From: Pseudomonadota bacterium
GTDB lineage: Bacteria; Myxococcota_A; Polyangia; JAAYKL01
Direction of reading: 5' to 3'
Assembly: GCA_023229365.1 (NCBI GenBank)
Contig: JALNZK010000002.1
Coordinates: 318,343-340,072 of the forward strand
Length of the DNA: 21,730 nt
The translations under genes were made by a program, and so were the position numbers. Under the pieces are notes generated by a model, which made no database searches, had not been told where the DNA came from, and saw only the letters and a list, made by a program, of their open reading frames with translations. Below, piece by piece: positions 3,672 to 16,824 of this stretch (positions within the stretch are counted from its first letter, which is position 1; every line of letters begins with the position of its first letter).

Positions 3672-3956
3672 ATGATTAAATTTTTAAAACTAATTACCGG
3701 CGAAGACACATTGGCAGAAGTTACAGAAGAAACCGAATTGCATTATGTTTTAAAGAACCCAATGCGATTTATACCCACCGAACAGGGCATAGGTATAGCC
3801 CCCTTCGCAATGTTTGTGAAAAAGGGCTCTACAATCACAATTGATAAAGATAAGGTTATTTTTGCCGCCGATCCAGAAGATGAAATAGCCAATGTTTATA
3901 ATGAAAAATATGGCTCTGGGATCGTTGTGCCACCCTCAAGCATACAATTACCATGA
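3672..3956 (+). CDS. Hypothetical protein (94 aa)
   Basis: Strong SD (tggaggattacaaATG). The stop overlaps the next start (ATGA). Confidence 0.6.
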   Translation: MIKFLKLITGEDTLAEVTEETELHYVLKNPMRFIPTEQGIGIAPFAMFVKKGSTITIDKDKVIFAADPEDEIANVYNEKYGSGIVVPPSSIQLP

Positions 3957-4543
3957 CAATGCCACATTTAATGAATTGCCCACATTCACCTGATGGGTGG
4001 TGCCTTGATTGCGTCAGTAAACAAGGCAAGCTTTTGCTTGAAATTGACCAAGCCATACAAGACCCGGATAAATTTCTGGCGATGGTTGCTAATCGTGGCC
4101 GACCATTAATCGGCGTTTGCGTTTGCATTTGTCGTCGTGAACCATCCAGCGGCAAAGTTCTTTTGCACAAAAGAAAAGGAAAGCACGCTCCTGGCACATG
4201 GGCATTCCCTGGCGGGCATATGGAAAAATGGGAATCCTTTGAAGGAGTTGTTCGTAGAGAACTAGAAGAAGAAGCAGGGCCAGATATAGAAATTGATAAT
4301 TTGCAATTTTGGACTGTTGCCAATACTCGATTTCATGATGAAGACAAGCATTATGTTGTTCTTTTTATTATGGCTGATTGGGTATCTGGCGAGCCAAAGA
4401 TTATGGAGCCAGAAAAATGTGAATGCTGGGAATGGTTTGATTGGAATGATCTTCCTTCACCACTGATGATGGGGATACAAGATATTGTTGATCGTAAACT
4501 GAGCCCTTTTGACTATGGAGGCGAACACGAAACATTATGCTAG
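3953..4543 (+). CDS. Nudix hydrolase with a Cys-rich N-terminal extension
   Basis: Nudix box GGHMEKWESFEGVVRRELEEEAG (GX5EX7REUXEEXGU). N-terminal CPHSPDGWCLDC cluster. Confidence 0.9.
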   Translation: MTMPHLMNCPHSPDGWCLDCVSKQGKLLLEIDQAIQDPDKFLAMVANRGRPLIGVCVCICRREPSSGKVLLHKRKGKHAPGTWAFPGGHMEKWESFEGVVRRELEEEAGPDIEIDNLQFWTVANTRFHDEDKHYVVLFIMADWVSGEPKIMEPEKCECWEWFDWNDLPSPLMMGIQDIVDRKLSPFDYGGEHETLC

Positions 4544-5900: not shown

Positions 5901-6422
5901 CTATCTATTTCGGAATTGCTGACACCAGAAGATTACTCCGCTGGCAGTACGAAAAGCCGCCACACCAATGCGTAGATGACCTGGGTTGAGAATGTTCGCC
6001 CTGTGACCTGACGAATTCATCCAACAATTGACCACATCACTACTGTGCGGTTGTCCCATTGCAATGTTTTCAGCAAGTGGGAGCCTCGTATGCACCATTG
6101 CCTGATTGCGAGTCATCCAGGCAGCGTGCCCTCTGGCGGTCTGCATCAAATCCTTGTCAACCTCGAAAGGCGGAAGACCATATCGTGCCCGCTCTTCGTT
6201 GGTGAATTTAATGATGTTGGCTTCAATTTCGGCAAGCTTCACACCATCAACCACCACTACTTTATCCGCAGCAGTCGGATAATTTGTTATTGCTTCCACT
6301 TCAGTGGTCTGTGCCGTCGTTGGGGCATTATAACTCTGCTGGCGACGACCTCTGCCTCTGGCTTCTGCCACTGAACAAACACACAACACAACAACAAACG
6401 CAAACAATAGATTCAACCTCAT
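5901..6422 (-). CDS. Secreted CAP/SCP/PR-1-like (YkwD-type) protein
   Basis: Signal peptide MRLNLLFAFVVVLCVCSVAEA. CAP-domain motifs NEERARYGLPP, HAAWM, NSSGHRANILNPG. Strong SD (aaggagtatcgtATG). Confidence 0.85.
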   Translation of the reverse strand: MRLNLLFAFVVVLCVCSVAEARGRGRRQQSYNAPTTAQTTEVEAITNYPTAADKVVVVDGVKLAEIEANIIKFTNEERARYGLPPFEVDKDLMQTARGHAAWMTRNQAMVHTRLPLAENIAMGQPHSSDVVNCWMNSSGHRANILNPGHLRIGVAAFRTASGVIFWCQQFRNR

Positions 6423-7232: not shown

Positions 7233-7877
7233 CTAGTGCATTGCACTAATGTGTAAGTCACGCAGGGTAATGGACCATGATTGATGCCGTGGCGATGATG
7301 CCAAGAAGAAATCAAGGATTTCCTCTGAGGCTGCCGCTACTGTCAACATGATGATGTTACGAGCCAAGGGATAGTCGCAAACGTCGCCACCGCTGTCCTT
7401 TGGCACCTTGTAGCGATCATCCCATACAACCTCGCCATAATCTTCAAATAATCCAGTGTGCAGACATGGAATCTTCTTTGCCCGGCAATGGGTTTGAACA
7501 ATTTGCCGTGCAGCATTATTATCAAAACAATCCAACACCAATGCTGAGCCACGCAGCATTTTATCCACGGTAGCGGCGGTCAATTCCTTGTCCACGGTGT
7601 CAATTTCAACACCAATGTTGCCAAACACCTTCTGTTTGGCGGCGGCAACTTTCAAAGCTCCAACATCCCGCTCATTCCAAAACTGGGTGTTTAGATTATG
7701 AGTATCGACACGATCTTTGTCAATACCACGGAGATTGGCAAATCCTTGTCGAGAAAGATTGTCAAGCAAATTGCTACCCAGGGCTCCTACACCACAAATG
7801 GTGATTAGACCTTGCAATTTCTTGGCATAATCCTTGCCTCGGTAAATTTCTTCATGATGGAATTTATTCGTTGCCAT
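7233..7877 (-). CDS. ThiF/MoeB/E1-like adenylyltransferase (short, 214 aa)
   Basis: Rossmann Gly loop ICGVGALGSNL. GIDKDRVDTHNLNTQ (compare the ThiF/E1 D.D.V..SNL.RQ pattern). LDCFDNNAARQ. Cys in GGDVCDYP. SD ggaggaagaaaATG. Confidence 0.88.
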   Translation of the reverse strand: MATNKFHHEEIYRGKDYAKKLQGLITICGVGALGSNLLDNLSRQGFANLRGIDKDRVDTHNLNTQFWNERDVGALKVAAAKQKVFGNIGVEIDTVDKELTAATVDKMLRGSALVLDCFDNNAARQIVQTHCRAKKIPCLHTGLFEDYGEVVWDDRYKVPKDSGGDVCDYPLARNIIMLTVAAASEEILDFFLASSPRHQSWSITLRDLHISAMH

Positions 7878-8097: not shown

Positions 8098-8661
8098 TCA
8101 CTTGGGTTTGTCTGTTTCAATTTCATTCGCCACCTCTTCGCTCTCTAGGAGAGCACCCAAATTAATTGCAGAGTCTTGATCCCAATCAATGGCATGCCCC
8201 CCAAGCTCAACCTCTTCATCAAATAATGTCAAGTCATCCTCCACAACGACATTAGGTGTTGCCAAGCCATAGCAAGCCAGTGGCTTTTTGGGTGTAATTC
8301 CTACAATTAGTTGCCCAAAGCTCTTTAGAGTACGAATGGGAATTGGAGGTTGTTCATCGCTGTAATACAAATAACCCTTGAGCCCATTGACTCCTTCGAT
8401 CAAACAAACGAGAGGCTTGCCAAACGACAACACCCACTGTGCCATTGTAGCATCATCCCGTGGGCTTGGGGAGGCGATCATTCCGGGGTGCGTGTGATAA
8501 AACCCAACCACATCCCCATATTTTTCTTCACGATCCATGACCCACTTATATGGAAAATCCACGGAGCCAGGGTGCCCTTCGCTTTCGTGCGAAACATGAC
8601 CCCACCACATTCTCCTGTGATTTCCGCCCGTCAAAATCCACGATTGTTCATTTTGTCTCAT
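8098..8661 (-). CDS. JAB/MPN (JAMM) metalloisopeptidase
   Basis: Complete JAMM motif HTHPGMIASPSPRD (HxHx7Sx2D) with upstream acidic residues. The ATG directly abuts the upstream stop (TAAATG). Confidence 0.9.
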   Translation of the reverse strand: MRQNEQSWILTGGNHRRMWWGHVSHESEGHPGSVDFPYKWVMDREEKYGDVVGFYHTHPGMIASPSPRDDATMAQWVLSFGKPLVCLIEGVNGLKGYLYYSDEQPPIPIRTLKSFGQLIVGITPKKPLACYGLATPNVVVEDDLTLFDEEVELGGHAIDWDQDSAINLGALLESEEVANEIETDKPK

Positions 8662-9177
8662 TTATTTTTCCCTTAGTCGTTTTATTGCTTCTTGACGTTG
8701 TTCTCGGGTTTGTTCTTCTAGTTCTTGAGTAAACAATTTCCCGCTCATGTAATATTCTGTACCCCAAGCTGGGCACATTTTGTGTAATTCAGGACGACCA
8801 CAACCAGGGCACACACAATCTTTTGACTCTTCTATGTCCCAGTCCATTGACTCTACAATTTCTTTCACATTCTCTTCGATAAATTTCTCACAAGCCTCTG
8901 GACCAATAGCTTCTCGCAATGCAGCAAACGGATTGCCTGTCGCTGCCCAGCGTGCCTCTTCTTCTTCCCAACACTCGTTTTGTCCACACTCTTTAACCTG
9001 ATCCCACAACAAAGCAACGGATGGGTGTTTGTCTTCTTCCCAATCACCACGTTCCAAAAATGCACAATAGCCGTCTTCTTGTTCAGCGTGGTCGGGGTGC
9101 TTGCTCCAATAAGGGCAAATGCCATTTGTATCATAGCAATATATTCCCTTCGGAATTAAACTCGGGTCTTTATTCAT
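8662..9177 (-). CDS. Cys/Trp/Glu-rich hypothetical protein (171 aa), probable metal-binding
   Basis: Start set at the ATG at 9177 (MNKDPS...), which forms an ATGA overlap with the GIY-YIG stop. Cys clusters: YCYDTNGICPYW...GYCAF and CVCPGCG...MCPAWG. Confidence 0.6.
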   Translation of the reverse strand: MNKDPSLIPKGIYCYDTNGICPYWSKHPDHAEQEDGYCAFLERGDWEEDKHPSVALLWDQVKECGQNECWEEEEARWAATGNPFAALREAIGPEACEKFIEENVKEIVESMDWDIEESKDCVCPGCGRPELHKMCPAWGTEYYMSGKLFTQELEEQTREQRQEAIKRLREK

Positions 9178-9893
9178 AATGTTTTCTTTTCCAACACTTT
9201 CCAATTTTTGTAATGTGCGATTTTGCCAGCAGCTACACTCCACATATGCCCAGAATTCAAATTGTGTTCCCTTGAAAACTGCTCCAAATTACTTGTCTCG
9301 AATACTTCTCCATCTGGCGATGCTATTTTGTATGCGAATTTCAATTTTTTGTTTCGCATTTTTTCTTTTGACTTATCCGAATACTTTCTTCCTGTGGCTG
9401 ATTTGGCAATTTTGTTTTTGTGTTCCTCTGTAAGCGTTTTGCCAGTGTTAAATAGCGATAACTTCTTTTTTGTTTTATTGCTTACTTTGTGTCCTAAATG
9501 ACTCGATCTAAGCTTTTTAATTGTTGCTTGGGTTACTTTTTTCCCTTTGTTGCCGATGGATATTTTGCGTTTAACCTCCTCAGATATTACGCCTCGGGCA
9601 TTTCCAAGTTTTAAATTATAACCATTTGGAGAAAGGGTTTTTAATTCACAGCCCCAATACACTTCCCTGGCATCTATTTCTTCTTGTGTGCCATTTAATT
9701 TTTCTAACACCACAATCTTAAAATGTTCTGGTCCGTATTTTCGAATGGCAAGGACAATCGGCATTAGTTTGGTGTTATTCCACCTTGCCTCCGCACAGTG
9801 TCTTTTGAACCTTTCTTCTGCCGTTTTCCAAGTTTGCCCAACATAGACCTTTGCATTAAGATCATTTATTATTTTGTATATAATTGCTTCCAT
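9174..9893 (-). CDS. GIY-YIG homing endonuclease (I-TevI/Seg-like) with NUMOD3-type repeats
   Basis: IIYKIINDLNAKVYVGQT (GIY...YIG), R/H/E core, NGYN. C-terminal repeated S.GNKGKK / SSHLGHKVS / NTGKTLTEEHKNKI DNA-binding motifs. Confidence 0.9.
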   Translation of the reverse strand: MEAIIYKIINDLNAKVYVGQTWKTAEERFKRHCAEARWNNTKLMPIVLAIRKYGPEHFKIVVLEKLNGTQEEIDAREVYWGCELKTLSPNGYNLKLGNARGVISEEVKRKISIGNKGKKVTQATIKKLRSSHLGHKVSNKTKKKLSLFNTGKTLTEEHKNKIAKSATGRKYSDKSKEKMRNKKLKFAYKIASPDGEVFETSNLEQFSREHNLNSGHMWSVAAGKIAHYKNWKVLEKKTL

Positions 9894-9945: not shown

Positions 9946-10401
9946 TTATAATTTGTCAAATTGGTCTCTGATCTTCATTAGAAGTTTTCCAAGATGGTTT
10001 TCCCCAACTCCGTTGCATACCCCAAAAAACGTGTCGTGCCACCAATTTCCTTCTACTAATTCCGCCTTGCCAGTGGCAAGAAGCTGATTGCATAATTGTG
10101 GATCGGAGAATTTTTGCACAAGCAAATCTTCCATAATCCCTAAATTAATATTTTGCCAATCGGGTCGTTGGTGTCCAGCTTTTTTGAATACAGCCGCAAG
10201 CTTCTTTGCTTTTCCAGGGGTAATAGCGTCTTGAATTTGCTTACGCAATGCCGGGTCTAAAAATTTAGCAGCTTGGTAAGCGTGTTCGGTGGAAATATAT
10301 TTTTCACCATCCAAAACTACCGGCGTGGACAGTATGGCAAAATTCGACAAATACCTGTATTCACCATCAAATGAATCAATTTTTGTTTGCTTGTCATTCA
10401 T
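9946..10401 (-). CDS. NADAR (YbiA/DUF1768) domain protein
   Basis: FDGEYRYLSNF, YISTEHAYQAAKF, GNWWHDTFFG and GENHLGKLLMKIR match the NADAR signature. Confidence 0.88.
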   Translation of the reverse strand: MNDKQTKIDSFDGEYRYLSNFAILSTPVVLDGEKYISTEHAYQAAKFLDPALRKQIQDAITPGKAKKLAAVFKKAGHQRPDWQNINLGIMEDLLVQKFSDPQLCNQLLATGKAELVEGNWWHDTFFGVCNGVGENHLGKLLMKIRDQFDKL

Positions 10402-10634
10402 TTTTTCTTTTCTTTCTTTTCAAGCTTTTTCAATGAATGTGCCAAATCCATTGAATTTGTTACTTTTCTCACTCCCTTTTTAAATTGTTTCAATTCTTCA
10501 CGCAACCGAATCACTTCTGCCTCCATGACCTGTGCTTTGCAACCATAGTCATACAAAACACCAGCGGTTGGCTCTGCCTTATTGACAGCATTCCAAAACT
10601 TGCGGGAGGCATTTCCAGAAAATATTTTTTTCAT
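10398..10634 (-). CDS. Hypothetical coiled-coil protein (~78 aa)
   Basis: Start placed at the ATG at 10634 (TAATG coupling to the upstream stop) rather than 10649. Lys-rich C-terminus. Confidence 0.5.
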   Translation of the reverse strand: MKKIFSGNASRKFWNAVNKAEPTAGVLYDYGCKAQVMEAEVIRLREELKQFKKGVRKVTNSMDLAHSLKKLEKKEKKK

Positions 10635-11122
10635 TACATTTCTGTCCACGATTTCAAAGGTGGTGCTACCAACATCTTTACAAACATCATGATTGTTCCG
10701 TAGACCACATCATCCTTGGTGAAATTAAATCTTTTCATTGCCTCATCATTCACCCATTCCATCAAGGAAGTGGCCCTTTCCTCGGAACGGGTCTTCCAAT
10801 CACACACCAACTCGGCAAGATAAATGCGGGGCATTCCTTTAATTCCGCCATCCCAATATTCTGGGTGGTGTTTATTCGTATGATTGTGCTGCATAATAGC
10901 GAGTTTCAAGGCAGCCTTATCTGGATTCTCTATTGATAAATGATCCCATTCAGCACCAAAAAACTTGCTATTATCGTGAAGAAAAGAATTTGCCACCAGC
11001 GTTTTGGCAAGCTTAAACTCTCCATTCTCCATCAGTCTTTCAGCAAGAATTACGCAATTCTCCTGAACACCGTGAATGTGCCGCATCAGTTTTTGAATAC
11101 GATCAATATCACGCTGACTCAT
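10634..11122 (-). CDS. HD-motif protein (putative metal-dependent phosphohydrolase-like; resembles phage DUF5662-type proteins from memory)
   Basis: H...HD pattern (HIHGV...FLHDNSKF), HNHTNKHHPEYW, AELVCDW. Start at 11122 preferred (ATGA coupling with the upstream 50-aa ORF); 11170 is the alternative. Confidence 0.5.
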   Translation of the reverse strand: MSQRDIDRIQKLMRHIHGVQENCVILAERLMENGEFKLAKTLVANSFLHDNSKFFGAEWDHLSIENPDKAALKLAIMQHNHTNKHHPEYWDGGIKGMPRIYLAELVCDWKTRSEERATSLMEWVNDEAMKRFNFTKDDVVYGTIMMFVKMLVAPPLKSWTEM

Positions 11123-11271
11123 TTCTTTTCTTGCTCCTTTTGCTTCTGTTCGATAATATAATTTCGACACCTTTCCAGTGCTTGATAATAAAGCAATTGG
11201 GAAAGTGGATCAACAGTATCTTGCAGACCTTTTGCACAAGCCAATTCGTGATTGTATTCTATTTCAGTCAT
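11119..11271 (-). CDS. Possible small ORF (50 aa)
   Basis: Manual translation: MTEIEYNHELACAKGLQDTVDPLSQLLYYQALERCRNYIIEQKQKEQEKK. It fills the gap between 11278 and 11122 with an ATGA overlap. Confidence 0.35.
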   Translation of the reverse strand: MTEIEYNHELACAKGLQDTVDPLSQLLYYQALERCRNYIIEQKQKEQEKK

Positions 11272-13038: not shown

Positions 13039-13066
13039 ATTATACTCCAGAAACGCATCTTGTAAA
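13039..13066 (-). promoter_or_regulatory. Sigma70-like promoter (TTTACA-N16-TATAAT) reading leftward
   Basis: Minus strand: tttaca(13066-13061)-16 nt-tataat(13044-13039). It shares extended similarity (..ctg[ga]agTATAAT) with the promoters at 15090 and 16797. Confidence 0.55.
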
Positions 13067-13097
13067 TAAGAAAAGCCCTGGGGACAATCCCCAGGGC
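13066..13097 (-). terminator. Rho-independent terminator after the Ro60-like gene
   Basis: 10-bp stem gccctgggga(13075-13084)/tccccagggc(13088-13097), 3-nt loop, then ttttcttattt on the minus strand. It lies 26 nt past the stop at 13123. Confidence 0.7.
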
Positions 13098-13122
13098 TTC
13101 CCAGACAAGTTCGCAAAGCTCA

Positions 13123-14691
13123 CTACGCAACTTTTCTCTTCGGCAAAGGCCAACTCATGATTTCCATGAGCAAGTCAAGCTTACTGGGCTTGCACAGGAA
13201 TTTCACCAGTCCAGGCAAGCTGTAGTAGTCGCCGGTAAATTGCCAAGCGTCTACTTCGATGCCTTTGACTCGACCTTCTTGCTCCAATTGATCCGTAGCA
13301 TTAGGAGTCTTGACAATGCAAATGTTGGGGAATGCATTCAAGGCTTGACAGTATTTTTGATAAATGTCAAAGAACTTGGGAGCAGTATTTTCCCCTTCAT
13401 CCGTTACCAAAATGATCTGTTCGACCATGTATTTCTTTTGTAGCATAAACTGCAAGCCAACGCCGCAGGAAGTCCAACCGCTTGCACGGATGCCTTCAAA
13501 TGCTTTCTCCCAAGCTGCCAAGTCTTTTCCTTGGCTAGTGATGGGATAGGCGATTGTATCTTGAGCATACGCATACAAAGGAACACCATCCTCCATAACC
13601 GTAGACAATAGGGAGCCAATTCGCTTGCCCAATTCAATGGTAGCGGCTTGAGAACCCGACTTGTCCACAAACAAAGCCGTGGGGCGACTGATACGACCCT
13701 TGGACTTAATTTGTTGGTCAGCAACGGCTTCCAATTGTTGCTTTACTTCATCCGAAACTCCAGGTGCCGCCTTGACGGCTTCCAAGGATTTCAATGCAGC
13801 CATTCGCTTATCGCCCTTGGCCACAACAAGTTTTTCCTCAATCAATTGCTTGAGATCGGGGTTGTCGAACACGCCACGCTTTTTCAAGCTGCCGATGCTG
13901 TTGACCAACTCTTGCGAAGTCATTACTTCCAACAAAGCCGCAATAACAGGCGGTGTCATGGATTCGATTACCGTACTGGCAATCCGGTACGGAATTTTAT
14001 TTTCCACGATCACTCGGGCTTGGTCAGTCGGTGAAGTTGCCTTGGCCAACTCCTTGATTAGGAACGCTTTGGAATCAGCAGGCGGCTTATCATCGAACAA
14101 CACGGCTTGAGCCCGGTCGGTCGGCTTGCGGTGTCCGAAAGCATACAAACTCTTCATATATTTTCGAGCACCAACGCAGACACTATCGAACCAATCTTTA
14201 TCCAATTCTCGCTCTTGCAGATAACGATTGATTTCCGTCATTACGGAATTGGGCAATTGTCGGAACAAGCCCGTTTTGACTTTCTTGGCAGGAGCAGCCG
14301 GTTGTGCCGGTGCGGCAGCAACTCTACGACCCCGAACCATGCGTGCGGGTGCCGGTGCGGCAGCCTTCGGCTTTCGTTCGGTGATATAGTTGCCCAAAAT
14401 GAACTTCAATACCCGTGTCAATTGATAGGGCGGAAGCTCACGCAACATGGCCAAACCAACTTCTCGGTGCCCGTCAAACTTGGACAGACACAAAGAAATA
14501 ATAAACATTTCTTTGTGGTCACGAATTTCGCCGGTATCATTATACCAAGCCGCCAATTGCGAATAGAACCGAGGATCATCGGTAATCATTCGCTGGTGTT
14601 CTGGATAAATAGCGGCCAGATCACGGTGAGGCGTGGTCAATAGAGTGTTGAGAATTCGGAGTCGCACATCTTGTTCGGTATTTTCGTTCAT
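13123..14691 (-). CDS. Ro60/Rsr-like protein: helical-repeat (TROVE-like) N-terminal region plus C-terminal vWA domain (522 aa)
   Basis: C-terminal vWA with MIDAS FVDKSGSQ (DxSxS), ASGWTSCG and ILVTDEGEN, in the same order as human Ro60 VDVSASM / GGTDCS / IVFTDNET (recalled). The N-terminal helical segments RDHKEMFIISLCLS and REVGLAMLRELPPYQLTRVLKFI parallel Ro60 KQEPMLFALAICSQ and [24 protein letters not shown]. Total length is close to Ro60 (~540 aa). Start moved to 14691 (MNENTEQ, SD aaagggatatgaaATG) because the ATG at 14727 lies inside a structured RNA element. Ala/Pro/Arg-rich insert KPKAAAPAPARMVRGRRVAAAPAQPAAPAKK. Confidence 0.65.
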   Translation of the reverse strand: MNENTEQDVRLRILNTLLTTPHRDLAAIYPEHQRMITDDPRFYSQLAAWYNDTGEIRDHKEMFIISLCLSKFDGHREVGLAMLRELPPYQLTRVLKFILGNYITERKPKAAAPAPARMVRGRRVAAAPAQPAAPAKKVKTGLFRQLPNSVMTEINRYLQERELDKDWFDSVCVGARKYMKSLYAFGHRKPTDRAQAVLFDDKPPADSKAFLIKELAKATSPTDQARVIVENKIPYRIASTVIESMTPPVIAALLEVMTSQELVNSIGSLKKRGVFDNPDLKQLIEEKLVVAKGDKRMAALKSLEAVKAAPGVSDEVKQQLEAVADQQIKSKGRISRPTALFVDKSGSQAATIELGKRIGSLLSTVMEDGVPLYAYAQDTIAYPITSQGKDLAAWEKAFEGIRASGWTSCGVGLQFMLQKKYMVEQIILVTDEGENTAPKFFDIYQKYCQALNAFPNICIVKTPNATDQLEQEGRVKGIEVDAWQFTGDYYSLPGLVKFLCKPSKLDLLMEIMSWPLPKRKVA

Positions 14692-14716
14692 TTCATATCC
14701 CTTTCTAAATAAAAAT

Positions 14717-14797
14717 AGCCCATCCAAGTCTGGTCAGCTTTGATTGGAAACGATATGGAAGTTTCTGTTTGTAAGCTGGGCCGGTATGGGATGGGCT
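14717..14797 (-). ncRNA. Y-RNA-like module 0 (minimal: conserved stem motif closed by a ~35-nt insert, no tRNA-like domain)
   Basis: 9-bp terminal stem agcccatcc/ggatgggct. Carries both conserved strands (minus sense 5' ..CCCAUACC..CAGCUUACAAACAG and 3' GCUGACCAGACUUGGAUGGG). Followed on the minus strand by AUUUUUAUUU. Confidence 0.55.
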
Positions 14798-14815
14798 TGT
14801 TCTGTTGTTTTGTTT

Positions 14816-15046
14816 TTAGCCGAAAACTGCCTCCGGTCGGAGTGTAAGGGTGTTAGTTTCACCATTACGATCAACAGCAAAAGCCCGTAGCTTCCCTTGA
14901 GGGATGCCTAGCCAATCGGCGGCAGCATTGCGGATATCGGCATCCGAGCTATTGTCGCCAATATTCAGTTCCGCCAAGGGAACGTCGTAAGACCTTCCTT
15001 CGACTCGAACGTGCAGCATGTTTTCAAGTTGGTTTTCGTTGTCCAT
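14816..15046 (-). CDS. Small beta-grasp/ubiquitin-like candidate (76 aa) ending in Gly
   Basis: Strong SD (aaggagaaattacgATG) and its own promoter. Ubiquitin size. Predicted strand-strand-helix-strand pattern (MLHVRVEGRSYDVPL / SDADIRNAAADWLGI / LTLRPEAVFG). The terminal residue is Gly, directly before the stop. Confidence 0.4.
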   Translation of the reverse strand: MDNENQLENMLHVRVEGRSYDVPLAELNIGDNSSDADIRNAAADWLGIPQGKLRAFAVDRNGETNTLTLRPEAVFG

Positions 15047-15089
15047 CGTAATTTCTCCTTATATCGTTCGTTCGTCTTTCACTTTCCCT

Positions 15090-15117
15090 ATTATACTTCA
15101 GAAATTTGAGTTGTAAA
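15090..15117 (-). promoter_or_regulatory. Sigma70-like promoter (TTTACA-N16-TATAAT) for the 76-aa ORF and Ro60-like gene
   Basis: Minus strand: tttaca(15117-15112)-16 nt-tataat(15095-15090), ~45 nt upstream of the ATG at 15046. Confidence 0.6.
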
Positions 15118-15127
15118 CAAGAAAAAA

Positions 15128-15253
15128 TCCGTCCAAGTTACAAAAACTGTTTTTGGTAAACAATGCAGGAATTGAACCAGCATTCTTCAGTTTTCAAGAC
15201 TGACGCTCAACCATTGAGCTAATTGTTTGTAAGTTTTAGTGGTATGGGACGGA
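15128..15253 (-). ncRNA. Y-RNA-like module 1: conserved stem motif flanking a complete tRNA
   Basis: Terminal stem tccgtcc(15128-15134)/ggacgga(15247-15253). The conserved 5' and 3' motif strands bracket the tRNA at 15154-15228. Confidence 0.6.
15154..15228 (-). tRNA. tRNA or tRNA-like, anticodon UGA, class I (short variable arm), CCA encoded
   Basis: Minus sense: AAACAAT-TA-GCTC-AATGGTT-GAGC-G-TCAGT-CTTGAAA-ACTGA-AGAAT-GCTGG-TTCAATT-CCTGC-ATTGTTT-A-CCA. U8, A14, G18G19, U33 and the T-loop TTCAA are present. One T-stem mismatch. A Ser-type anticodon without the long variable arm is anomalous. Confidence 0.55.
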
Positions 15254-15256
15254 AAG

Positions 15257-15385
15257 TGGAGGGTGTTGGATTCGAACCAACATTTTTTCGTTTTCAGTGA
15301 AAAAAGTTACCTTTTGTTTGTATGTCTCTCAGGTGTGGGACAATTGCTTGTCCAAGTTTGGGAAACTGAACGTTTTTAACCCTCC
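15257..15385 (-). ncRNA. tRNA-like RNA (anticodon loop CUGAAAA, GAA/Phe-type) with the conserved stem-loop inserted in the D-loop (module 2)
   Basis: 7-bp acceptor GGAGGGT/ACCCTCC. T arm GTTGG-TTCGAAT-CCAAC. Anticodon arm present. The D region is replaced by ...GTTCAGTT[motif hairpin, loop AGCAAUU]...AAGGTAAC. No CCA. Confidence 0.55.
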
Positions 15386-15395
15386 AAAGTATCAG

Positions 15396-15522
15396 CGGGG
15401 AAGATGGGATTCGAACCCATAATTTTTCCTTAACAGGGAAACTTTTACCAATTGTTTGTATGTCTCTCAGGTGTGGGATGGTCGCCCATCCAAGTTTGGG
15501 AAACTGAACTTCTAACTTCCCC
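15396..15522 (-). ncRNA. tRNA-like RNA (anticodon loop CUGUUAA, GUU/Asn-type) with the conserved stem-loop inserted in the D-loop (module 3)
   Basis: Perfect acceptor GGGGAAG/CTTCCCC. T arm ATGGG-TTCGAAT-CCCAT. Anticodon stem TTTCC/GGAAA. D region ...GTTCAGTT[hairpin closed by GGAUGGG-CGA-CCAUCC]...TTGGTAAAAG. Confidence 0.55.
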
Positions 15523-15612
15523 ATGTGCCCGGTTTATAATTCTCTGCCTGCAACCGGAAACCCGGCAGAAAAGCCTCCAGTTATTGGTTTATCCCAAGAG
15601 GCGAGTAATCAG

Positions 15613-15738
15613 ACCCGGTGGTAGGAGTCGCACCTACAATCTTTTCCTTAGGATGGAAACGCTGTTTGTACGTCTCTCAGGTTTGGGATAATTTCTTATC
15701 CGAGTTTGGGAAACTGTTTGCTGTTTAGCTTCACCGGG
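15613..15738 (-). ncRNA. tRNA-like RNA (anticodon loop AUCCUAA, CCU/Arg-type) with the conserved stem-loop inserted in the D region (module 4)
   Basis: Acceptor CCCGGTG/CACCGGG. Anticodon stem TTTCC/GGAAA. Non-canonical T-loop TGCGACT (G at position 55). 3-bp D-stem GCT/AGC enclosing the motif hairpin (loop GAAA). Confidence 0.5.
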
Positions 15739-15743
15739 ATATT

Positions 15744-15902
15744 CATAAGGCAAACATTTGATCGTCCAAGTCGAAGAAACTGTTTTTTGCAACAATGTTG
15801 GATTCGCACCAACTACCGAAACTTTATGGAAGTTTTGCTCTACTGATGAGCTAATTGTTTGTAAGTTCCGTCAGTATGGGACGATCAAATGTTTGCCTTA
15901 TG
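15744..15902 (-). ncRNA. Y-RNA-like module 5: 24-bp perfect terminal stem plus conserved motif flanking a degenerate tRNA-like domain (CAU loop)
   Basis: cataaggcaaacatttgatcgtcc(15744-15767) is the exact reverse complement of 15879-15902. The inner tRNA-like domain (15789-15860) has a D-loop ATCAGTA lacking GG, anticodon loop UCCAUAA (C33) and T-loop TGCGAAT. Confidence 0.6.
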
Positions 15903-15913
15903 TTGATTTTACC

Positions 15914-16090
15914 GACGCAAGCAAGTGTTGGCCCGTCCAAGTCGAAAAAGCTGTTTCACATAGTGACAGTTTAATAGACTGTTGCCTTTACCATTAGGCT
16001 AAAACACATTTTGGCGTGTTTGTTGGATTCGAACCAACAGATTGTTTGTAAGCTCTGTCTGTGTGGGACGAGCAAACACTTGCCTGCGTC
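15914..16090 (-). ncRNA. Y-RNA-like module 6 with a circularly permuted tRNA-like domain
   Basis: Long imperfect terminal stem 15914-15938/16066-16090. Minus-sense order: motif 5' strand, T arm (GTTGG-TTCGAAT-CCAAC, 16022-16038), loop-capped helix AAACAC/GTGTTT (16002-16021), D-like arm with GG (15984-15999), ACAGT-CTATTAA-ACTGT (15966-15982), motif 3' strand. Confidence 0.6.
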
Positions 16091-16092
16091 AA

Positions 16093-16260
16093 CATCATCA
16101 AGCTTCCGTCTGTCCAAGTTGAAGAAGCTGTTCAACTTTTGACAGTTCCAATTACTGGTGCCTGACCGTTAGGCTACATTCCTTGCGGAATGATGGGAGT
16201 CGAACCCACTTATTTGTTTGTAAGCTCCGTCTGTATGGGACAGACGGAAGCTTGATGATG
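16093..16260 (-). ncRNA. Y-RNA-like module 7 with a circularly permuted tRNA-like domain and a GNRA-capped acceptor-like helix
   Basis: 23-bp perfect terminal stem 16093-16115/16238-16260. T arm 16193-16209. CATTCC-GCAA-GGAATG hairpin 16177-16192. D-like GCCT-AACGGTC-AGGC 16160-16174. CAGT-AATTGGA-ACTG 16143-16157. Confidence 0.6.
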
Positions 16261-16295
16261 TTTACAACTCAAATTGTCAAAGAACACAAAATTGG

Positions 16296-16384
16296 CTATC
16301 CAAGTTCATAGAGGGGAGAACATTCAAATCTCCCCCTTCAAGCGGGGGAGAAAGTCGTTTGTAACCTCTATAGGTTTGGGATAG
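16296..16384 (-). ncRNA. Y-RNA-like module 8: conserved motif enclosing a GC-rich hairpin instead of a tRNA-like domain
   Basis: Terminal stem ctatcc/ggatag. Internal helix AUAGAGG/CCUCUAU. Insert hairpin TCTCCCCC-GCTTGAA-GGGGGAGA. Confidence 0.5.
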
Positions 16385-16475
16385 CAAGGGGAGCCGTTGG
16401 AGTCGAACCAACAAAACCACAAGCCCCGTCTTTCAACACTATACGCTGAATACCGTATTGCGGTTCATTCAGTAT
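16385..16475 (-). ncRNA. 5' leader of the RNA array: stem-loop plus a tRNA T-arm/minihelix-like element
   Basis: Minus sense from the predicted TSS: hairpin CTGAAT-GA-ACCG-CAATA-CGGT-ATTCAG (about 16447-16473). Then GGGG...GTTGG-TTCGACT-CCAAC(16396-16412)...CCCC. Confidence 0.4.
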
Positions 16476-16796: not shown

Positions 16797-16824
16797 ATTA
16801 TACTTCAGCTTTCTGGTTTGTAAA
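16797..16824 (-). promoter_or_regulatory. Sigma70-like promoter (TTTACA-N16-TATAAT)
   Basis: Minus strand: tttaca(16824-16819)-16 nt-tataat(16802-16797). The predicted TSS falls at or next to the SD of the 79-aa ORF, giving a very short leader. Confidence 0.5.

Follow-up and report, generated by a model that had tools for sequence, protein, structure and literature searches.

A Y-like hairpin before a Ro60-like gene

The stretch of DNA analyzed here, 21,730 nt of contig JALNZK010000002.1 (the window; coordinates count from its first letter), carries on its minus strand a gene for a Ro60-like protein of 522 aa, preceded on the same strand by a small open reading frame (ORF) of 76 aa. From the stop codon of this ORF (14816) to the ATG of the Ro60-like gene (14691) there is a gap of 124 nt, 14692-14815, and the ORF coordinates bear out exactly the gap given in a preliminary description of the locus. 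Most of the gap is taken up by a hairpin element, module 0, which is a real member of a large family of Y-like RNAs. Reading along the minus strand, module 0 is followed by the U-rich tract AUUUUUAUUU, then by a Shine-Dalgarno (SD) sequence and then by ATG 14691, an order that had been described before and can be read directly in the sequence. The features of the locus are collected in Table 1.

Table 1. Features of the module 0 locus and of its surroundings in the window
Feature	Position	Strand	Basis
Module 0, 81-nt hairpin-type Y-like RNA element	14717-14797	-	Minimum free energy and centroid fold; leave-out covariance model R1, 48.5 bits, E 4.4e-10, full model
Helix 1, 5' strand AGCCCAUCC	14789-14797	-	Pairs with 14725-14717; compensatory changes in 9/10 helix 1 pairs, 34 modules
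Internal loop, 5' side, CAUAC (family C-N-N-A-C; CGAAC in L018)	14784-14788	-	Aligned tables
Helix 2, 5' strand CGGCCCAGC	14775-14783	-	Pairs with 14738-14730 at 6/9 positions
Conserved UUACAAACA box, unpaired in module 0	14766-14774	-	Repeat family D1; nearly invariant columns in alignment A5; tRNA alignments
Apical hairpin GAAAC-UUCCAUAUC-GUUUC, anticodon-arm remnant	14747-14765	-	89% identical to 15818-15835 (repeat family D14)
Helix 2, 3' strand GCUGACCAG	14730-14738	-	Fold, fixed-register alignment and covariation
Internal loop, 3' side, ACUU	14726-14729	-	A-C-U invariant in alignments A3 and A5
Helix 1, 3' strand GGAUGGGCU	14717-14725	-	Fold and covariation
U-rich tract AUUUUUAUUU right after helix 1, terminator-like tail	14707-14716	-	Sequence; tract longer in L252
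Shine-Dalgarno sequence AGAAAGGGA of the Ro60-like gene	14698-14706	-	Sequence; conserved GAAAGGA at equal distance in L018, L020, L023, L184, L187
In-frame TTG within ACUUGG, spurious start of the longest ORF	14725-14727	-	ORF list; frame lost in L252; N-termini of homologs line up with the ATG
Ro60-like gene, 522 aa, HEAT-repeat ring and vWA domain, D-K-S-G-S MIDAS (metal ion-dependent adhesion site) motif	13123-14691	-	Foldseek, profile search
Small ORF of 76 aa with C-terminal ...RPEAVFG, candidate ubiquitin-like gene that heads the transcription unit	14816-15046	-	Small ORF in 123/189 loci
Promoter-like TTTACA-N16-TATAAT, would drive small ORF, module 0 and Ro60-like gene	15090-15117	-	Consensus scan
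Canonical intrinsic terminator after the Ro60-like gene, with promoter 13066-13039 directly following	13070-13102	-	Terminator and promoter scans
Sibling module 1, tRNA-like insert; helix 1, then UUUUUUCUU, then promoter 15117 at once	15128-15253	-	R1, 56.1 bits
ThiF/E1-like, Prok-JAB, NADAR, DUF5662, GIY-YIG and CAP-domain genes (order unspecified)	7233-7877, 8098-8661, 9946-10401, 10634-11170, 9174-9893, 5901-6422	-	

The gap folds as a single long hairpin from 14797 to 14717 with a free energy of -27.7 kcal/mol (z -3.35), a value matched by none of 200 shuffles, and folding in a 241-nt context returns this hairpin as the centroid structure. Module 0 has the general shape of a Y RNA: it is 81 nt long, inside the usual span of about 80-130 nt, and its ends are joined by a 9-bp helix followed by an internal loop and a second helix. 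It ends 25 nt upstream of the Ro60-fold gene, within the distance of about 2 kb taken for a Y RNA. Its candidate Ro-binding motif, (A)UCC-CAUAC / ACUU-GGA(U), was compared with the general Y RNA motif, i.e., the vertebrate GGUCCGA bulged helix or the bacterial GNCGAAN0-1G / CGAA; it is like the known motif in place and partly in sequence, and is not identical to it. Rfam gave no match for module 0 at the gathering or a permissive threshold, only a spurious plus-strand mir-259 match of 24 bits. In particular, 14692-14815 holds no match to the YrlA family RF02553, and module 0 is not assigned to that family.

The preliminary description regarded module 0 as a stem motif without a tRNA body. This stands, since the module has no T or D arm and neither ARAGORN nor Rfam finds a tRNA match in 14692-14815, with the refinement that a remnant of the anticodon arm has been kept: the apical hairpin resembles the anticodon arm of the tRNA-Met-like sibling module at 15818-15835. 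The UUACAAACA box, which in the tRNA-like siblings is the 5' strand of an acceptor-like stem, has also been retained. Comparison with L252, a contig of 95-96% identity, finds no changes in the 58-nt core and seven in the apical hairpin, and the leader has changed as well. Judging from this alignment, module 0 is a deletion derivative with constraint on the core only, because the anticodon-arm remnant varies and the core does not; the apical hairpin appears unconstrained.

The Y-like identity claimed for module 0 is strongly supported by covariation, pattern counts and a leave-out covariance model. In 34 modules from the window and its relatives, the same fixed register is found: helix 1, C(A/G)NAC, a 9-nt helix 2, (Y)UACAAAC, the body, helix 2', ACUU and helix 1'. 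In the core of these modules 84% of the cells are paired, against 28-43% with a slid partner, and 16 of the 19 pairs show compensatory changes. Helix 2 played no part in module selection; it is paired in 76.5% of cases family-wide and has compensatory changes in seven of its nine pairs. At the place of CAUAC, relatives have CGAAC, CGCAC or CCAAC. A strict CA/G-N-AC motif found the family in only 15-18 loci, and a pattern anchored on UACAAAC was used instead. In 169 unique related loci this pattern picks out 318 modules, all of them on the gene strand and none on the other, and modules are present in 123 of these loci, including GC-rich bacteria, where the loop is CCAAC or CCGAC. Short forms like module 0 make up 71 of the 318 modules, about a fifth.

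Neither the window nor L252 contributed to model R1, for which 57 hairpin-type modules from other loci were used. The model finds exactly eight modules in the window, all on the minus strand, and module 0 scores 48.5 bits (E 4e-10, model positions 1-78); the next match after these eight has E 0.77. The L252 ortholog scores 49.8 bits, and all 56 matches in 19 low-GC loci are on the gene strand. Thus, a chance resemblance of module 0 to the Y-like family is excluded by its score with the leave-out model. A scan of IMG/VR with the DNA pattern TCCCAYAC..YTTACAAACA gave 52 stretches, all but one of which were chance matches with neither a Ro-like gene nor a complete module.

The Ro60-like identity of the downstream gene, also claimed before, is likewise strongly supported by structure matches and by a profile match to TROVE structures. 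An AlphaFold (AF2) model of the 522-aa protein, made from 36 homologs, has a predicted local distance difference test (pLDDT) score of 82. Its 13 best Foldseek matches in the PDB are all full-length Ro60 (E 1e-11 to 2e-8, template modeling (TM) score about 0.6), and they span human, Xenopus, D. radiodurans Rsr and the Thermus phage phiLo. The MIDAS residues D343-x-S345-x-S347 are invariant among the homologs. On the basis of this model the protein is a divergent Ro60-fold protein, since the 13 top structure matches are all Ro60 and the MIDAS is invariant. A sequence profile matches the PDB TROVE entries 9kop/9l5y marginally (E 6e-4). Pfam TROVE is not detected in the protein (no Pfam match at E<=0.01), nor is there a PHROGs match; its relatives match vWA_Ro60 (PF25045) below the threshold only. 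More than 1700 proteins belong to the Ro60-fold family; they are encoded on huge-phage contigs and on chromosomes of Planctomycetota, Chloroflexota and Abditibacteriota. IMG/VR yielded nothing when scanned with the single protein, and a second scan with a sub-clade profile returned the same contigs and no new ones.

The start codon of the Ro60-like gene has to be considered together with the hairpin. Module 0 had been said to overlap the first in-frame ATG. This was a misreading: position 14727 begins a TTG, which is the UUG in the conserved ACUUGG, and no in-frame ATG comes before 14691, which is 25 nt downstream of the end of module 0. The start of the longest ORF does lie in the 3' strand of the module 0 stem, as had been stated, and the start mis-call predicted from it has already happened in public data, where homolog P0003 and the gene on L254 are called as 534-aa proteins from a TTG in the equivalent hairpin. 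Public 534-aa calls in L017 (1581) and L254 (2822) begin at a TTG in the leader hairpin, with the conserved ATG 60 nt downstream.

It could be argued that the hairpin region is coding and that the protein starts at TTG 14727, which is in frame, gives the longest ORF (534 aa), agrees with the 534-aa public calls for homologs and would produce the N-terminal peptide LDGLFLFRKGYEM.... We give this almost no credence. The TTG has no SD and is buried in a 9-bp helix, while the SD AGAAAGGGA is strong and stands 6 nt before the ATG; in L252 a 7-nt insertion in the leader shifts the TTG out of frame and a TAA stands two codons ahead of the ATG. In an alignment of 35 homologs the N-termini coincide with ATG 14691, and so do those read from related loci. 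TTG 14727 is therefore rejected as a start. Because of the SD spacing, the homolog N-termini, the L252 frameshift and the mis-calls in public data, the true start is ATG 14691, with the predicted N-terminus MNENTEQD.... Pairing of AUCCC with GGGAU as an anti-SD was also tried and rejected, as it has 5 bp only and is not conserved in relatives.

Transcription unit and layout in relatives

The promoter scan covered sigma-70-type promoters only. TT(G/T)ACA-N16-TATAAT occurs four times in the whole window, always on the minus strand, at 16824, 16508, 15117 and 13066. The three sites at 16797-16824, 15090-15117 and 13039-13066 share the form TTTACA-N10-CTG(A/G)AG-TATAAT, and two of them begin in the U-run of the preceding terminator. 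There is no sigma-70-type match between 15090 and 14691, and thus transcription must run through module 0 to reach the Ro60-like gene. We rejected a promoter in the interval from module 0 to the ATG, since there is no match and TTGGAT-N17 leads to AAAGGG. L187 has a possible promoter, TTGGAC-N16-TATACT, which does not generalise.

Helix 1 has 9 bp, six of them G-C pairs, and AUUUUUAUUU directly follows, which is the GC-rich stem and U tract of a rho-independent terminator. All relatives that carry the small ORF and have at least 61% protein identity (L252, L018, L023, L020, L184, L187, L016 and L017/L254) have a hairpin and U-run, then a GAAAGGA-type SD and then the ATG. The distance from the stem end to the ATG is 22-32 nt across these relatives, though stems and loops differ. 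L018, L023 and L252 have the same core despite wholly different loops. L023 has a full module followed by a minimal one before the Ro60-like gene, and L020 a full module followed by an ultra-minimal one of 32 nt. In L016 the hairpin and U-run are kept and the motif has diverged; in L017/L254 the hairpin and U-run stand before the SD without the Y motif. In the more distant phage loci L002, L004 and L006, a canonical terminator separates the last module from the SD and leaves no space for a promoter.

U-runs are common at the ends of these modules. At least five U in the 9 nt after the stem are found in 42% of the 318 modules (61% of the minimal ones), compared with 3.5% of background windows. 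They also occur behind modules that stand before no gene, namely window module 1, L023 1066-1192, L187 2792-2915, L121 5713-5792 and L067 4266-4340. U-runs thus characterize the 3' ends of modules and are not a feature of the ribosome-binding region alone. In 37 of 115 loci, no more than 60 nt separate the Ro60-like start from the end of the nearest upstream module.

In GC-rich bacteria the space from the small ORF to the Ro60-like gene is occupied by a full YrlA-type Y-like RNA, and module 0 is thus at the ancestral position of a Y RNA. Bacterial loci often have, in addition, a hairpin-type module just downstream of the Ro60-like gene (L067 4266-4340, L121 5713-5792, L029 4128). In a further group of loci a permuted hairpin, GGAC(N)-loop-(N)GUCCCCAAC, abuts an AAGGAG SD: L009 (~3955-3990), L015 (~3950-3990), L031 (just before the ATG) and L186 (~2940-2990). 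The L015 5' untranslated region (UTR) is essentially this permuted hairpin, because it lies just downstream of a TTTACA-N16-TATCAT promoter. When L252 1-290 is compared with window 15047-15300, homology breaks off precisely at the SD of the small ORF, and unrelated sequence stands in place of the Y-like array and the 15117 promoter. The cassette of small ORF, module 0 and Ro60-like gene therefore moves as a unit.

The sibling array and neighboring genes

Upstream of the small ORF, at 15128-16386 on the minus strand, at least seven more Y-like modules form an array preceded by a perfect TTGACA-N16-TATAAT promoter (16508-16481). The modules share a 5' box (UCCCAnAC..CUUACAAACA), a 3' box (ACUUGGA) and T-arm-like hairpins, and the seven score 20-56 bits with R1. 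Two of them, 16262-16091 and 15902-15744, are YrlA-type with basal stems of 24-25 bp. The best partial match of a sibling to RF02553 is 27.7 bits, against a gathering score of 69. Module 1 marks the end of a transcription unit, since its U-run UUUUUUCUU is directly followed by a promoter.

ARAGORN and Rfam call tRNA genes for Ser-UGA and Met-CAU (15157-15228 and 15789-15860, minus strand) that are embedded in Y-like stems. The acceptor 5' strand of both is the conserved ACAAACAAU box, and the "tRNA-Ser" has no long variable arm. For these reasons of sequence and fold, the two calls are probably tRNA-shaped Y modules rather than real tRNAs. There are also three permuted hairpins, ACUUGGAC-loop-GUCCCACAC, at 15332-15357, 15470-15495 and 15680-15705 (minus strand), each formed by local pairing of a module's 3' half with the 5' half of the module that follows. 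Therefore, two alternative topologies are possible in that part of the array. A listed 76-aa ORF at 15294-15524 (minus strand) lies wholly within the array and is probably not a gene.

The small ORF directly upstream of module 0 is found on the same strand as the Ro60-like gene in 123 of 189 related loci. Its C-terminus, ...AVFG, is invariant, with 0-2 extra residues in relatives. Its model is beta-grasp-like (beta-beta-alpha-beta-beta), and the top Foldseek matches are ubiquitin-like (Ubl) domains, though they are weak (E>=0.09, TM about 0.45); Pfam and PHROGs have no match. A Ubl-like identity is plausible from the model. Downstream of the Ro60-like gene the window has ThiF/E1-like and Prok-JAB genes, along with NADAR, DUF5662, GIY-YIG and CAP-domain genes. 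In L020 and L186, too, Prok-JAB is found 3' of the Ro60-like gene. No connection of Ro60/TROVE with Ubl-E1-JAB turned up in the papers searched.

The role of module 0 and its meaning for Ro60 systems

We suggest that module 0 is a hairpin-type Y-like RNA whose basal helix and U-run act as a leaky intrinsic terminator, limiting read-through into the Ro60-like gene. We hold this to be the probable explanation, with moderate confidence. Module 0 is probably both the RNA partner of the protein and a brake on transcription, because a Y core and a terminator-like U-run stand together before the start codon. The module keeps the presumed protein-binding core, i.e., helix 1, the CAUAC/ACUU loop, helix 2 and the UUACAAACA box, and has lost the tRNA-like body. 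Transcription from the 15117-15090 promoter would give a single transcript of the small ORF, module 0 and the Ro60-like gene. At the intrinsic-terminator-like 3' end formed by the GC-rich basal helix and the U-run, a fraction of the transcripts would stop, leaving an mRNA of the small ORF, or a small RNA made by processing, with the Y-like hairpin at its end. The remaining transcripts would read through and allow synthesis of the Ro60-like protein from ATG 14691.

Three roles had been proposed for the element: a Y-like RNA cut out of the mRNA, an attenuator or terminator, and an autoregulatory site in the leader. The terminator or attenuator has the best comparative support of the three, as far as sequence comparison can tell, because the hairpin and U-run occur in all close relatives, the motif-less lineage included, because distant phage loci have terminators at this place and because there is no downstream promoter. 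Release of a Y-like RNA would be compatible with termination, and M. smegmatis YrlB offers a precedent by analogy (PMC4201824). Autoregulation is only suggested, by the ultra-minimal and permuted motif versions beside the SD in relatives.

Several points weigh against the leaky terminator that we favor. An 81-nt hairpin with internal loops is unlike a compact terminator, and the consensus terminator scan (loops 3-8 nt) made no call. Termination must be leaky, because the Ro60-like gene has no promoter of its own. The U-run AUUUUUAUUU may instead be an A/U-rich translation enhancer, and the AT-rich leader might carry a promoter for a phage RNA polymerase. In favor of the terminator, a hairpin and U-run within 60 nt of the start is found for 15 of 38 low-GC Ro60-like genes versus 11 of 131 control ORFs, but since loci of one clade are not independent, such enrichment counts overstate the evidence and are only indicative. 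Minimal modules are not enriched beside the Ro60-like start (11 of 71, versus 26 of 247 full modules).

Alternatively, module 0 may not be primarily a free RNA but a cis-acting operator, to which the Ro60-like protein binds as to a Y mimic in its own leader, stabilizing the terminator helix or blocking the ribosome-binding site. This is possible, but we think it unlikely. The element beside the SD shrinks in some relatives to helix 1 and a CACAC/ACUU loop (L020 3944-3975, 32 nt; L187 2934-2978, 45 nt; L184 659-724 is similar), the permuted hairpin (GGAC..loop..GUCCCCAAC) abuts the SD without a U-run in L009, L015, L031 and L186, and the distance from stem end to ATG is steady while loops and stems diverge, all of which would suit an operator. 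However, L017/L254 retain the hairpin and U-run yet lose the motif, L001 and L005 have no element in the gap, minimal modules show no preference for the leader position, and there is no known precedent for Ro60 autoregulation through a Y mimic. We offer only tentatively the idea that the protein could gauge its own abundance in this way, with binding to CAUAC/ACUU leading to more termination or to occlusion of the SD, which is 10-20 nt away. If true, synthesis of the Ro60-like protein would be titrated against the pool of free Y-like RNA from the upstream array, and this would be the first feedback circuit for Ro60 and a terminator whose hairpin is itself a protein-binding non-coding RNA domain.

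Processing without any termination is a more doubtful explanation still. Here RNases would excise the module, the Y-like RNA and the Ro60-like mRNA would be stoichiometric, and the U-run would be a translation enhancer. Known Y RNAs are indeed cut from polycistronic precursors (M. smegmatis YrlA/YrlB, D. radiodurans Yrn2-tRNA-Yrn1; PMC4201824), array modules with stems of 13-25 bp and no U-runs must be processed, and an RNase E-type site could lie in the unstructured, A-rich spacer at 14798-14815; against this stand the U-runs behind modules that precede no gene. We find it improbable, too, that module 0 is a plain intercistronic terminator or stabilizer hairpin descended from a Y module, its motif a decaying relic that binds no protein. 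Though the apical part is a degraded anticodon arm, helix 2 is only partly paired (6/9), and the L017 lineage and distant phage loci reach the same layout with unrelated hairpins, a decaying motif is at odds with a core that is 100% conserved relative to L252 while loop and leader change, and that L018, L023 and L252 keep despite entirely different loops. The leave-out score of 48.5 bits is, moreover, comparable to those of the tRNA-bearing siblings.

Hairpin-type Y RNAs beside Ro60 genes, those of phages included, are already known. Each of the three bacteria studied has one tRNA-like Y RNA and one hairpin-type Y RNA (YrlB, Yrn2) (Chen et al. 2014, PMC4201824). In M. smegmatis, YrlB has YrlA on one side and rsr on the other and is released by processing of a common precursor, and the motif GNCGAAN0-1G marks the Ro-binding site and resembles the vertebrate GGUCCGA contacted by Ro60 (PMC4201824). 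In the Thermus phage phiLo, two Y-like RNAs upstream of phiRo60 were identified by CGAA in a stem bulge (PMC12135203). The C(A/G)NAC loop of the present family (CGAAC in L018) is at the same place as this bacterial and phage motif; by this partial sequence likeness it is a candidate binding site.

Module 0 resembles YrlB (M. smegmatis, S. Typhimurium) and Yrn2 (D. radiodurans) in its long end-paired stem, its presumed Ro-binding motif and its small loop, and in adjoining a Ro60 gene alongside a larger tRNA-like Y RNA. It differs in that the core of its family is C-N-N-A-C/ACUU with UACAAAC, not GNCGAAN0-1G, in that the putative binding partner belongs to a Ro60-fold family missed by Pfam TROVE, and in that it lies between a Ubl-like ORF and the Ro60-like gene with its stem and U-run abutting the SD. 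The siblings in the window share with YrlA (RF02553) the order T arm, stem, D arm, and both are beside a Ro60-type gene, whereas module 0 has neither these arms nor an RF02553 match and the siblings are below the gathering score too. PhiLo Yrl1/Yrl2 (PMC12135203; PDB 9KOP, 9L5Y) are a comparable case, in which a phage-encoded Ro60 has Y-like RNAs directly upstream, of stem-bulge-stem shape and with a CGAA-type motif in the bulge. Among solved structures, phiRo60 is closest in sequence to the window protein; however, protein identity is only about 14%, and no Ubl-like ORF, multi-module array, terminator or leader role has been reported there.

Intrinsic terminators serve as intra-operon attenuators, and small RNAs derived from 3' UTRs exist. 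Module 0 is like these in having a GC-rich helix and U-run within a transcription unit and a downstream gene without its own promoter, and its hairpin would be the body of the small RNA. It is different in being 81 nt long and composite, with a conserved internal loop of the protein-binding type, and its termination is putative. What is new here is the divergent Ro60-fold family with its own Y-like core motif, both missed by Pfam TROVE and Rfam YrlA, the conserved small Ubl-like ORF upstream, and a Y-like hairpin fused to a terminator-like tail and the ribosome-binding site of the Ro60-like gene.

Elements of the module 0 type cause real annotation errors, as the 534-aa gene calls that start within the hairpin demonstrate. 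Of the partners of bacterial Ro60, hairpin-type Y RNAs like YrlB and Yrn2 are understood least. Module 0 belongs to a large system that escapes the current Pfam and Rfam models and comprises the Ro60-fold family, the Ubl-like ORF and Y-like RNAs with a distinct core. The recurrence of the layout in phage-like and bacterial genomes provides a testable link between Y RNA structure, transcription termination and the dosage of Ro.

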